This document shows, in pieces, positions 41,697 through 59,151 of a stretch of 64,000 nucleotides of DNA (position 1 is its first letter; each line of letters begins with the position of its first letter). Source of the stretch: a virus. Both the position numbers and the translations under genes were made by a program. Below the pieces are notes generated by a model, which saw only the letters and a list, made by a program, of their open reading frames with translations, made no database searches and had not been told where the DNA came from. The DNA lies in IMG/VR virus record IMGVR_UViG_3300045988_130630; one strand, given 5' to 3'.

Positions 41697-41725
41697 ATTA
41701 TATCACAAATTTTCTTTTTTGTCAA
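41697..41725 (-). promoter_or_regulatory. consensus SigA-type promoter on the - strand: TTGACA, 17 nt, TGaTATAAT (extended -10)
   Basis: Reverse complement of 41720-41725 is TTGACA; of 41697-41702 is TATAAT; 17-nt spacer. Confidence 0.5.
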
Positions 41726-41744
41726 GTTTTAAATTAATAATGTT

Positions 41745-42197
41745 CTAATTGCGAGAACCGCGCAAAGGCAAAGTGATATCTCTTTCCTTTTGGATGTATG
41801 GTCCATCAATTAGGTAATCAGCGGTTTTTAATATATTCTTAATTCTAATATTATTACTATTCTTTAAATCATCATAAACATATCCAGTCCATACATATAT
41901 TTTAATGTTTGGATATATTTTTTTAATTTCAGTAATAATTAAATTAGTTAAAAATTCATTTTCAGGGCAAAGAGGTTCTCCACCCATAATACAAAGATTA
42001 CGCTCAACATTATTCGCATTAATGGCAGTAATTAATTCATCTAATACTTTATTAGTAAATTCTTTACCGCCATTGAAATCCCACGTTTCAGGATTCTGGC
42101 ATCCTTCACAATGGTACGGACACCCTTGTGTAAAAAATGATACACATACTCCGGGTGCCGCTGCCAAATCATTTTTTATAATTCCTGCATATTTCAT
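41745..42197 (-). CDS. nrdG: anaerobic ribonucleotide reductase activating protein NrdG (radical SAM)
   Basis: CPYHCEGC radical-SAM cysteine triad. The stop at 41745-41747 is TAG; if read through, a 13-aa extension ends at TGA 41703-41705, inside the promoter. Confidence 0.8.
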   Translation of the reverse strand: MKYAGIIKNDLAAAPGVCVSFFTQGCPYHCEGCQNPETWDFNGGKEFTNKVLDELITAINANNVERNLCIMGGEPLCPENEFLTNLIITEIKKIYPNIKIYVWTGYVYDDLKNSNNIRIKNILKTADYLIDGPYIQKERDITLPLRGSRN

Positions 42198-44530
42198 TCT
42201 AATACTCCCGTATGTTTTATCCTTGCTTCAACTTCTTTTTGTTTACCCCAGTTAAAAGCAGTTTTATAATTACCTGTAAGATAACCGGTCACACGACGTA
42301 ATTGTTGAATATTGTGGCTTCCGCACACTGGACAAGAATCATTAAATTCATCACAATAACCACATTCAAGGCAAGTATCATTAGGAACATTTACTGCGAA
42401 ATAAGGAATATCATGATCCATAGCATAATTAACAATAGTTTCAAGAGCATCAATATTATGTTTTACAGTAGAATCAAGTTCAACATAAGTAATACATCCT
42501 GCGGATGAATAACCAGTCAGCTCAGACTCAATATCAATTTTTTCAAATGGACTCATTTCTTTCCACACCGGAACATGAATACTGTTAGTGAAAAATTCTC
42601 TATCACTAACATTAGGGATAATTCCATACCTTTCTTTAAATTTCGTCATAGCTGTATAACAAAGATTTTCTGCTGGGGTATAGTATACACCAAAATTTAA
42701 TTTATATTTTTCTTTATATTCAGCGCATCTTTCTTTAAATAATTGTTCAATTCGTTTAGCTAATTTCATTCCTTCTGAAGTGGTGTGGTCTTTACCAATA
42801 AGAATTTGAAGAGTTTCAGCCAAACCTAATTGACCAATAGCAAGAGTTCCATGTTTAAGAGCAGAACGAATTCCTTCTTCTGGAATATAACCTGCCATAA
42901 CATTATTTTCATACATAAATCTCGCGGATCCAGGATCTTGAGAGCAAATCCATTCAAAACGTTCCATTAATTGAATACGTGCTTCATTGATTTTTCTATC
43001 GAGTAAAGACATAAATCGTTCTACACCAATTTTAGTCCGTTCTTCTTGGGATAATGACTTATAGTCATCCCAATTATCATTTTCATTTAGAGTAACGGCC
43101 ATCATCGCAAGAGTAGGAAGGATAATAGTAACAGGACAAATATTTCCACGTCCATCTTTAAGTTGACCGAATCCATTAATATCCCATCCATTCGCAGTTC
43201 TACATCCCATTGTGGAAAAATAAGTGCGAGGATCATTAATATCATATCCCGCATTACCAGACCAATCAACATTTGCATAATTAGGATAAAGGCGTCTTGC
43301 AGTGCTTTCTAATGCTAATCTATATAAATCATAGTTAAGATCACCAGGTTTGCGGTTAACACCTTTCATACATTGGAAAATTCCACAAGGAAAAATTGAA
43401 GTTTTATGCAATTTACCAAGACCTTCAATGGAGACATCTAATAATGCTTTAGTTACCATTCTACCTTCTGGTAAGGTGCAAGTGCCATAATTAATACTCG
43501 TAAATGGTAATTGGTTGCCGCTACGAGACTGTAAAGTATTAAGATTATGGTAAAGGCCTTCTGCAGCTTGATGAGTCTCACGGACAGTCATATCATAAGC
43601 ATAATCATAAGCCTTTTTATAAGTTTCAGAAGCTAATAAATAACTAACTGCATTTTCTTCTTCAGTTTTTGTTGTGGCATTTCGGTATGATTGAATAGGC
43701 ATTTTTGATGTGTCTAAATCTCCTAATACATTATTAACAATATAGTTATAATCATTAGGACTATATAAGTATTTAACTCCATCTTTAAAATGCTTCCAAA
43801 AAGATTTTCTTACATAAGGAACCATAGTCCAATCTAAGTGAGTGGCACTAACTCCGCCAAACTAACAAAGACTTTGGATTTGAAAAATAACAGCAATTAA
43901 TTGAAATGCTGTATTAATTGAACCCGCAGGACGAACATCAGCTTGACGAGTATTAAATCCATTAGCGAGTAAATTATCAAAGGGAATACTTAAACAATTA
44001 TGAGAACCAACATAATAAGAATCAAGGTCATGAGTATATATCATATTATCAATATGATTCTTACGAGCCATAGGGGAAAGTAAGTAATCAAGTGCAAGTT
44101 GTTTGGTGACAACACCACTTGCTTCACCTATACGACCACCGAATGAATGTTCATCGACATTAGCATTTTGATTTTTTACGTTATTACCATCGAGCTTTTC
44201 ACGAATTGCTTTAATAAAATCATCTTTTTTATTACGAGCAACTTCTTTTTTATATCTATATCTAATATAAGCACGAGCAACATCACGTCGCTCAGAACGC
44301 ATTAAATAATCTTCAATCCAATCTTGAAGATCTTCTACTCCAACACTTCCATCGGGGAAATGATTTATTTGTCTTTCAATGTCTTCCGCGATATCTTTTG
44401 CGGTATCATCTTCATATAGTTTACCATCAACTTCAATAAATGCTTTATTTATTGCGTTAATAATTTTCTTTTTATTAAATTGAGTTATACTTCCATCACG
44501 TTTAATAATATACAATTTTTTTGCCTCCAA
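42194..44530 (-). CDS. nrdD: anaerobic ribonucleoside-triphosphate reductase NrdD (778 aa)
   Basis: Track ORFs 43862-44530 (N-terminal part) and 42194-43825 (catalytic part, C-terminal Zn ribbon CLECGYCDEFNDSCPVCGSH and glycyl-radical RVTGYLTG) are one frame separated by a single TAG at 43862-43864. TGA stop overlaps the nrdG ATG. Confidence 0.85.
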
Positions 44531-57011: not shown

Positions 57012-57065
57012 CTCCTCTATTATTTTTAAATGAATAGGAGAGCATTTTAAGAAAAATTGTCCTTG

Positions 57066-58598
57066 TCAAAAAGCACTTTCTTCTTCAAGAGTAATTTTTA
57101 TATCATCAATAGGAACAAGTTCATAAGCATATGTAGTACAAAACATAGGAATAATTCTACAAGTTCCTAAATCTGCTTTACACCATAAAATAACTCCTTT
57201 ATACCTACCACGTCTATTTTTATAAACAGACATTTTAATAGTTGGAGTATCAAATAATTTTGTGTTTAGTATTTTTTCTAATGAAATTAAGTCATCATCT
57301 TGAACATTTAAAAGAATTGATCCATAATCTACTTTATCTGCGATAGATTTTGCTCCACGCAAAAGATTCTGGTCAGGAGTTTTAGAATCAACATAATCAC
57401 CATTTAACTGTGTTGCTGACATAATAAAAACACCGTATTGATTACAAATATCTTTTAATTTGTTAGATAACATAAAAAGTATATTATCTTCACGAAGTTT
57501 TACTCCACCACTACGACGAGTAATTTCTTCAAGAATTTTCATACTTGTATGAATATAGTCATGAAATATATATTTTACATCGTGATCTCGGATGCCTTTT
57601 TTGATTTCATTTTCGACATCCTGTAATGAAAAATCAGGTAATTCACGAATATACAATGGACTATCTTTAAGAATTTTCGCGGCTTCTATTACTCGTTCTT
57701 TTTCATTTCCTTGATATTCATTATAAATAATATGTTCTTCATTCACATTAGAAAGAAAAGCAAGCATCATTGTTTGAATTTCATTTTTATCTTGCTCTGT
57801 AGTTATATATAATACTGGTTCTTGAATTCCGTTTTTAATCCAACTTCCAAAAGTATCATCATATATTTTATTACAAGCAATATAGCACGAATCCGCAATC
57901 ATAGAACGAGTTTTACCTACACCGGTGGCTGCGGAGCGCAAGTAAAACTTTTTAAGTCTCGCTCCACGAGTAACTGTATTAATTAATGGCCCATATAGAG
58001 GACTTCCTGCTATTGGATGTTGCTCTAAATCATCAAGCAATTCAAAAATTCCATCACCTGCTTGAACTGCAACTCCTTCAACATCATTTACATATTCATA
58101 TTTAATTTGTTCTATGCGGTCATCAATTAATTGTGCGATATGCTCTAATGAAGAATTATCAAGATTATCTTCTTGTAATTGTTTTTTTTCAGTATCTAAA
58201 ATATTATCAGGGTCATAAATAAAAGAAACATCAATGCCATATCTATCATAGGCGCGAAGTAGAGACATTTTTTTTAAACGACCATAATAATAATCAAATG
58301 ATAAAGGTTTCGCATTTTCAGAAACTTTTAATAACCATTCTTCGCCTTTATTAACTTTAAATGTAGCTTCATATTTAGGGCGAGAAGAAAGAAAATCACT
58401 AATATTTTCTAAAGTAATTTTCTAAGCTCCTAATTCATGAATTTTATATATTGCTCCAAAAACAATTCTATGAAATTCATCAGCAAAGTCTTCATCAGTT
58501 ATTGTATATCTATCAGTAAAATCCAAAAGCTAAGGAGTATTATATACGCACCCTATAACTTGTGTAATCGCTGTTGGGTCTACATATTTACTCGGCAT
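57066..58598 (-). CDS. dnaB: DnaB-like replicative helicase (510 aa)
   Basis: The track ORF (400 aa) carries the RecA-like domain (SAATGVGKT, MSATQLNG). ATG 58598 behind AGGAGGA adds the DnaB N-terminal domain (DPTAITQVIGCVYNTP-TAG-LLD...) through 2 TAG codons. Confidence 0.8.
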
Positions 58599-59151
58599 TT
58601 AAGTCCTCCTATTCATCTAAAAATGTAAAAACTGATCTTTTTCGAGGTTCTTTTTTAGGAATAGGAATTTTTATTTCCTTTAATTTAGGAACGTAATCAA
58701 TAACATTTTTATCTTTATTAGATTGTTGAATCATCCAAAGATTATAATAATAATTGTAAGCGTCTTTATAAATAAAGGGTATAATACCAATTCCACCATT
58801 AGCTTTATTTTTATTATTTCCTTTAACTTCATAAAAATAAACTAAGGCTTTTAACATTCCAGAATATGTATATTGATATTCTCTGATATAATCATTCATT
58901 TGCTTGCGGACGCGAGCATTAATATATGACTCTCCCAATAAGTTTTTTACATATTCTTCAAATTTTTCTTTATCTAAATCTTCTTTTGTTTTTACTTTTT
59001 CGGGTGGATTATGAACTTGTAAAGGAGTGTCTTCATTTTCAGCCTATTTAGCACATTCAGGGTGTGCATATCTTCGAGATTTTATTTGAACATAAGGAAA
59101 CTTATCTCTATCAAAAGTTTGCTGACAATAAATACATTTAACTTTATGTAT
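58588..59151 (-). CDS. zinc-finger hypothetical protein upstream of dnaB (possible helicase-loader or replication-organiser role); start codon uncertain
   Basis: N-terminal KVKCIYCQQTFDRDKF...YAHPECAK. Continues through TAG into track ORF 58609-58938. The terminal TAG at 58609 is followed by 6 codons to TAA. No in-frame ATG after the upstream stop; the candidate start is ATA or ATT near 59151-59157 after AAAGGAG. Confidence 0.4.

Follow-up and report, generated by a model that had tools for sequence, protein, structure and literature searches.

Four apparent TAG stops in the replication module of a human gut phage are very probably sense codons

The stretch of DNA analysed here, hereafter the window, comprises 64,000 nt of the IMG/VR record IMGVR_UViG_3300045988_130630, and positions are counted from its first letter. 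On its minus strand lie four genes in which a TAG codon stands a short way ahead of an in-frame TAA or TGA. These TAGs were originally predicted to be the standard-code stops of early genes, giving short products early in infection and extended products once suppression had started. The TAG coordinates of that prediction hold, as do the extensions (13 residues in NrdG, 39 in the guanylate-kinase-like protein, 6 in the zinc-finger protein and 39 in the last RecJ fragment); its description of the genes holds only in part, as the RecJ fragment belongs to a gene with six TAGs and the zinc-finger gene contains a second TAG. The module and the four genes are as follows.

About 39–64 kb, minus strand: module encoding dUTPase, NrdG, NrdD, guanylate-kinase-like protein, DNA polymerase (Pol) III alpha, SF1 helicase, RecJ-like DHH exonuclease, primase, DnaB-like helicase and AAA_24 ATPase.
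41703–42197, minus strand: NrdG, the activase of the anaerobic ribonucleotide reductase, 164 amino acids (aa); TAG at codon 151 (41745–41747), then 13 codons and TGA (41703–41705).
44590–45195, minus strand: guanylate-kinase-like protein (Gmk), 201 aa; TAG at codon 162 (44710–44712), then 39 codons and TAA (44590–44592).
52598–54346, minus strand: RecJ-like DHH exonuclease, 582 aa, akin to SPbeta YorK; interrupted by six TAGs and ending at TAA (52598–52600).
58588–59151, minus strand: zinc-finger protein, ~187 aa; TAGs at 59044–59046 and 58609–58611, with 6 codons after the latter and TAA at 58588–58590.

Taken together, the evidence indicates that the phage very probably uses genetic code 15, in which TAG encodes glutamine (Gln), that the four ‘TAG stops’ are sense codons and that the long products are native. 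The four TAGs would then stand 7–40 codons ahead of the real TAA or TGA stops, and the native products would be a 164-aa NrdG, a 201-aa Gmk-like kinase, a 582-aa RecJ/YorK-like exonuclease and a zinc-finger protein of ~187 aa.

The genes were compared by local tblastn with a set of 47 loci around Pol III alpha homologues (44–99% identity). In NrdG, the radical-SAM CxxxCxxC motif is present as CPYHCEGC, and the NCBIfam profile TIGR02491 matches with 135.5 bits against a cut-off of 126.1; residues 2–157 cover profile positions 1–154 of 154, and the match ends 6 residues beyond the TAG. The TAG stands for the Gln of a motif, RGSxNQ, which is encoded by CAA or CAG in 21/21 relatives of less than 90% identity, while codon 151 is TAG in 19/19 close strains. 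Every relative has 4–19 further residues after the motif Gln. The tail evolves with a ratio of non-synonymous to synonymous substitution (dN/dS) of 0–0.12, synonymous changes being seen, and the predicted peptide spanning the TAG as Gln is ...GSRNQNIINLK. A search of solved structures to cover the NrdG C-terminus matched nothing but PFL activase, whose alignment is confined to the N-terminal part.

The guanylate-kinase-like protein has a P-loop, GKSGAGKD, and matches Pfam PF00625 (Guanylate_kin) with 77.9 bits against a gathering score of 25.2, residues 13–182 covering profile positions 3–173 of 182. TIGR03263 scores 81.6 bits, below its cut-off of 160.45, with residues 13–186 on positions 2–177 of 180. 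Judged by these matches, the gene encodes a kinase of the Gmk fold with a putative guanylate substrate. Solved kinases align to residue 192, and Pfam, NCBIfam and the solved structures all extend 20–30 residues past the TAG. Codon 162 is CAG in nine, CAA in six and TAG in two of 17 strains that are 94–99% identical, the window also having TAG. Relatives readable as far as their own stop all have lengths of 183–216 aa. The predicted peptide across the TAG is ...YTTDEIQFQLMNDIK. The guess that the long form of Gmk is the native one was thus borne out, and the same holds for all four proteins, whose C-termini are conserved in relatives both in sequence and in length.

The 177-aa ‘RecJ-like gene’ is the final fragment of the 582-aa gene running from 54346 to 52598, whose TAGs lie at 54137–54139, 53867–53869, 53609–53611, 53339–53341, 52718–52720 and 52649–52651 (codons 70, 160, 246, 336, 543 and 566). 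After the fifth of these there are 39 codons to the TAA, the sixth TAG being among them. Pfam finds DHH (58.2 bits) and RecJ_OB (30.4 bits) above their cut-offs and DHHA1 (20.3 bits) below its cut-off of 25.9; together the three matches span the TAGs. SPbeta yorK, its closest cultured relative, aligns with residues 1–575 at 36% identity. Relatives are all 579–593 aa long and end in ...YYF before TAA, except one (L024, ...FDF); codon 566 is Gln in 17/18 of them, and in standard-code relatives the gene has no TAG.

In the zinc-finger gene, a CxxC...HxxC finger (59136–59053) is separated by the TAG at 59044–59046 from a conserved C-terminal domain. The relatives keep the finger, the C-terminal domain and an acidic tail, with 3–8 residues after FLDE, and the 3′-proximal TAG is GAG in seven distant relatives. 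The predicted peptide spanning a TAG as Gln is ...SVFTFLDEQEDLNAE. The match to phrog_4680 begins at profile position 73, so that the N-terminus would be missing if the ATG at 58899 were taken as the start. The conserved start position holds no ATG, GTG or TTG; it has ATA (59151–59149), 8 nt after AAGGAG. Relatives start here with ATG (L028, L024), TTG (L018) or ATA (L012, L040), and the ATA may be a non-canonical start codon.

Could the TAGs instead be true stops, or assembly errors, with extensions that are open by chance? At ~0.063 TAA or TGA per random codon, estimated from base composition, an extension stays open with a probability of ~0.7 over 6 codons and ~0.4 over 13 codons, which is unremarkable in such A+T-rich sequence, and ~0.08 over 39 codons, which is mildly unusual. 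What decides between a native extension and a chance one is homology, not the length of a reading frame. At the protein level the extensions remain conserved at identities down to 32–55%, and they match family profiles, while the TAGs recur in 10–19 independent assemblies; chance or error is thus extremely improbable as an explanation.

Sense TAGs are not confined to these four genes. Other genes of the module, some with TAGs and some without, are listed here.

42194–44530, minus strand: NrdD with an N-terminal ATP-cone; TTG start at 44530, TAG at 43862–43864; Pfam NRDD.
45158–48994, minus strand: DNA polymerase III alpha, 1278 aa, akin to SPbeta YorL; 49 Gln codons, TAG absent.
49468–50661, minus strand: SF1 helicase, 397 aa; TAG at 50023–50025, flanked by Pfam AAA_30 and UvrD_C_2.
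56307–57011, minus strand: HNH/homing-endonuclease-like gene between DnaB and primase; two TAGs.
57066–58598, minus strand: DnaB-like helicase, 510 aa; TAGs at 58530–58532 and 58422–58424; Pfam DnaB N-terminal domain.
62754–63767, minus strand: GIY-YIG protein with a long coiled-coil N-terminus; four TAGs.

Domains cross TAGs on both strands; on the minus strand, Pfam domains do so in NrdD, the SF1 helicase, RecJ and DnaB. The NRDD match (473.6 bits) crosses the NrdD TAG, a position at which relatives have Gln in 21 cases and TAG in seven. The TAG of the SF1 helicase aligns with Gln in 21/22 distant relatives. In DnaB the N-terminal domain (residues 13–96) covers both TAGs, and codon 23 is Gln in 15/16 distant relatives. 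Upstream of the first ATG of NrdD (44302), a further 76 aa (44303–44530) form the ATP-cone and are conserved throughout the relatives, so that the supposed ‘gap’ behind Gmk is coding. Wherever a 3′-proximal TAG was open to comparison, either conserved sequence or a profile match carries on past it: in NrdG, Gmk, RecJ (at two sites), the zinc-finger gene, g142, g147, g234 and g220.

Across the window, open reading frames (ORFs) of at least 100 aa add up to 67 kb with TAG taken as sense, against 44 kb otherwise, and plus-strand ORFs then reach ~2770 aa. The plus-strand genes contain 190 in-frame TAGs, 83 of which are in one ORF, while 32 TAGs are spread over 15 of the ~35 minus-strand genes. The inferred stops of the window genes are all TAA or TGA. 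TAG, CAG and CAA interchange among close strains in Gmk, in NrdD, at codon 160 of RecJ and at codon 23 of DnaB, and on these alignments TAG acts like a further synonymous codon for Gln. Standard-code relatives have Gln opposite the TAG sites of the late tape-measure-like gene as often as opposite its CAA/CAG sites, and the two kinds of site share one substitution profile; together with the Gln found at minus-strand sites, this argues for one codon meaning on both strands. Reassignment would thus reach beyond the late plus-strand genes, at lower density, into the minus-strand genes for replication and nucleotide metabolism.

The standard-code relatives form a sister clade of four loci (L018, L031, L037 and L045; polymerases 56–60% identical), whose structural-gene loci are L133, L131, L129 and L132. 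In this clade a tape-measure-like ORF of 3229 aa is uninterrupted in code 11, and the replication genes are without TAG. The clade appears to use the standard code, and the family would accordingly hold both recoded and unrecoded lineages. Its full-length proteins, with CAA or GAG at the sites in question, give the native lengths directly.

Short in-frame extensions behind a stop are also the classic signature of leaky, programmed readthrough, which would produce the two forms in constant proportion from the start of infection to its end. In phage Q-beta, the short coat protein ends at a stop and the longer A1 form arises by decoding that stop; the stop is conserved, its decoding is inefficient and both forms are required. 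The 3′-proximal zinc-finger TAG does lie in a conserved context, TAGGAGGA, which is also the ribosome-binding site of DnaB (Shine-Dalgarno AGGAGG); its first three bases are the TAG, and the two genes overlap by 11 nt. Programmed sites, however, keep their stop in relatives, and here the relatives have sense codons, CAA or CAG in NrdG and Gmk and GAG in the zinc-finger gene. Reassignment is moreover genome-wide, and the 190 in-frame TAGs of the plus strand need efficient decoding rather than a leak of a few per cent. Readthrough of the Q-beta type is, on this evidence, very unlikely.

As to how TAG is decoded, a phage-encoded amber suppressor transfer RNA (tRNA) with anticodon CUA would be the most likely means. 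ARAGORN finds such a tRNA at 6458–6529 of L389, a related locus with 89–91% DNA identity to the loci of the window's clade, and the Rfam tRNA model scores it at 37.1 bits against a gathering score of 29. It immediately follows two tRNA-Ser genes (6266–6529 for all three), has a U1–C72 mismatch atop the acceptor stem and carries G73. In many Firmicutes, Gln-tRNA is made by transamidation. The L389 gene was reached through a protein search followed by contig look-up; the related contigs were also walked outwards from the window, covering ~140 of ~197 kb, and no tRNA(CUA) was found in eight scans of viral contigs and one of a metagenome. Rfam on the window and two flanking loci returned nothing. 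The phage of the window would nevertheless be expected to carry the same tRNA(CUA) as L389. The 13 genes around that tRNA contain one TAG against 111 CAA/CAG codons, which fits the published idea that the machinery of a code change is kept compatible with the standard code (10.1101/2021.08.26.457843). As DnaB, NrdD, the SF1 helicase and RecJ need suppression to reach full length, the code change would be effective by the time the replication proteins are needed, and suppression is presumably already at work when the replication genes are translated.

Beside the tRNA genes (1228–5733 in locus L383; 12491–16637 in L389) lie genes for a 508-aa DUF2828 protein and for one of ~830 aa that contains the shoulder domain of major vault protein, a pair that is unusual for a phage.

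Several points weigh against reading TAG as Gln throughout. The window itself contains no tRNA gene, and the suppressor is seen only in a relative that is ~90% identical. No release-factor gene was found in the ~140 of ~197 kb covered, ~50 kb lying outside; for this, window proteins were compared with Pfam and the precomputed Pfam hits of L389 were consulted, with ORF sizes only used elsewhere. The tail of Gmk is less constrained than its body (dN/dS of 0.24–0.79, still below 1, against 0.13–0.20). TAG makes up 11% of the Gln-type codons on the minus strand against 35% on the plus strand, a threefold deficit, and Pol III alpha has none at its 49 Gln codons. Some selection against TAG in part of the minus-strand module is therefore plausible and would fit incomplete suppression at some stage. 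The identity of the amino acid at TAG, finally, is drawn from alignments.

The lower density of TAG bears on the originally predicted scheme, in which release factor 1 (RF1) of the host terminates at TAG early, the suppressor reads it later and the phage makes use of the short and long products. An early-standard, late-recoded model has been published in general form (10.1101/2021.08.26.457843), and the scheme would agree with the rarity of TAG in the minus-strand module relative to the late genes, its absence from Pol III alpha and primase in the window, and the almost TAG-free genes round the suppressor tRNA of L389. The last 40 codons of the minus-strand genes moreover hold 11 TAGs against 4.9 expected (within-gene permutation, p ~0.001). 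The 40-codon cut-off is post hoc, however, and the excess is gone when 10 divergent relatives are pooled (42 against 38, p = 0.16); enrichment at 3′ ends was for both reasons dropped as a sign of tolerated termination. At all four sites the relatives have sense codons, and in Gmk TAG is a minority allele at 94–99% identity. A short NrdG would lose the invariant Gln of RGSxNQ, and a short Gmk its last 40 residues, including ~25 that match the C-terminal portion of kinase family profiles and solved guanylate kinases. The first TAG would end RecJ at 69 aa and the zinc-finger protein at ~35 aa, which are not the short forms that had been described.

The view of these genes as a set of early genes stopping at TAG also fails on their arrangement, as TAG-bearing and TAG-free genes alternate on one strand: zinc-finger gene (two TAGs), DnaB (two), HNH (two), g60 (none), primase (none), g96 (none), g105 (none), RecJ (six) and a lysozyme-like gene (none). 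No standard-code block is present between 41.7 and 58.6 kb. Completeness of all four proteins at the TAG in alignments with homologues had been named beforehand as the outcome that would refute the prediction; the alignments gave the reverse, none of the four being complete at its TAG. A pair of short early and long late products as a designed feature is thus unlikely, the sense codons in relatives speaking against it at each site. Any truncated product made before suppression would rather be a by-product common to every TAG-bearing gene than a designed isoform.

The extension of NrdG was correctly said to run through a downstream promoter, which lies within the last codons of the gene.

41697–41725, minus strand: sigma-70-type promoter, TTGACA-17 nt-TGATATAAT (TTGACA-17-TATAAT plus TG extension), running from 41725 to 41697.

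This is the only 12/12 match in 39000–58999, and 100 first-order Markov simulations of the window give an expectation of 0.0 for the pattern that includes the TG extension. The TGA stop of NrdG sits inside the extended −10 element. The gene after NrdG begins at ATG 41663, and a TAG (41682–41684) lies in its leader, beside the ribosome-binding site. The promoter probably drives four TAG-free genes, from 41663 to 40103, which include dUTPase. Promoter type was considered as a marker of early or late expression and rejected: the same near-consensus sigma-70 motif precedes the zinc-finger and DnaB genes (59213–59185), the genes after NrdG (41725–41697) and heavily recoded plus-strand genes (263–291). 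Promoter-like counts overall are not above those in shuffles.

Pol III alpha, which shares 39% identity with SPbeta yorL over 99% of the polymerase, is TAG-free in 12/12 representative relatives, and primase (55017–56120 in the window) is TAG-free in all of these except L006. Across the same 12 relatives, RecJ and the helicase have TAG counts of 0–8. Selection may preserve the ability to translate polymerase and primase under the standard code. A further proposal is that the sparse TAGs act as a translational gate, such that DnaB, NrdD, RecJ, the helicase and the zinc-finger protein await the suppressor tRNA while Pol III alpha, primase and dUTPase (TAG-free in nearly all relatives) are made at once; the gate would be at its mildest where, as in NrdG and Gmk, a TAG stands near the 3′ end, and transient truncated isoforms with altered activity could result there. 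Such a gate is doubtful. In seven loci (L017, L026, L031, L037, L040, L041 and L047) the polymerase match extends over 4.8–5.7 kb against 3.8 kb, that is, 1–1.9 kb more DNA than in the window, which suggests an intein or other insertion in the polymerase gene.

About one third of a low-G+C genome of ~190–197 kb is covered by the window, the phage being from the human gut and having an SPbeta-like replication module. The G+C content of the window is 27–36%, and the contigs of relatives, which are 100–197 kb long, derive from metagenomes of the human gut, among them Hadza samples. When 18 kb were compared with GenBank phages by megablast, there was no match, and the best polymerase identity in the GenBank phage collection is 39%, to SPbeta. 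The phage lineage with this module is undescribed, while reassignment of TAG to Gln is itself of a known kind. SPbeta is a temperate Bacillus phage that uses the standard code, and the likeness to it covers the yorL/yorK replication module only.

In gut phages, the reading of TAG as Gln has been shown by proteomics (Peters et al. 2022, PMC9523058), and the extent to which replication genes adopt the alternative code reportedly varies (Borges et al., bioRxiv 10.1101/2021.08.26.457843). Among three phAss-1-like genomes, NrdG contains a TAG in one only (PMC10607447). The variation of TAG among the replication genes of the window's family matches this published variability (10.1101/2021.08.26.457843; PMC10607447). 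The code-15 phages known from human and animal guts (10.1101/2021.08.26.457843; PMC9523058) resemble the present phage and its relatives in that TAG is dense in structural genes and read as Gln, some close relatives keep to the standard code, the suppressor tRNA(CUA), here that of L389, is surrounded by genes compatible with that code and TAG use in replication genes varies. Unlike them, the present phage has an SPbeta-like module (Pol III alpha, RecJ-like exonuclease and DnaB-like helicase) and no release-factor or tRNA-synthetase gene in the ~140 kb covered. The phAss-1 phages, of the proposed Phassvirus group (PMC10607447), likewise come from the gut, have reassigned TAG and encode Pol III alpha, NrdG, dUTPase and a tape-measure gene containing TAG; they carry tRNA-Sup-CTA genes, and orthologous ORFs, including NrdG, differ in the presence of TAG. 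phAss-1 has 136 kb and 36 tRNAs (PMC10607447), whereas the genomes considered here are ~160–197 kb; the likeness is one of published features.

For annotation the choice of code matters: in code 11, NrdG appears as 150 aa, Gmk as 161 aa, RecJ as six pieces and the zinc-finger gene as two, while code 15 yields complete genes. Reassignment has entered essential replication genes in the lineage of the window, whereas TAG is absent from these genes in sister lineages. The family thereby offers a natural series for how the reassignment of a stop codon spreads through a genome. A designed pair of isoforms, one short and one long, would be of interest if it were real; the comparative data lend it no support.

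A few further features of the window and its relatives may be recorded. The sign of the GC skew flips near 35–40 kb, at the same place as the change of coding strand, and one gene at this junction of the late and replication modules (35126–35842, minus strand) encodes a response-regulator receiver domain with a weak LytTR DNA-binding domain. A polymerase protein 98% identical to that of the window occurs in two GTDB contigs (L387 and L388) binned in metagenome-assembled genomes as ‘uncultured Mollicutes bacterium’ (a contig of 163,874 bp) and ‘Clostridium sp.’; these are probably mis-binned phage DNA and are not taken as evidence of the host. In the relative contig 3300045988_118370, at ~116–132.5 kb (L349 ~9000–20330; L359 10289–16300), more than 15 kb have a G+C content of 40–46% and contain short ORFs only. 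The rest of that genome has 27–32% G+C, and the G+C-rich block lies 18–35 kb to the left of the start of the window.

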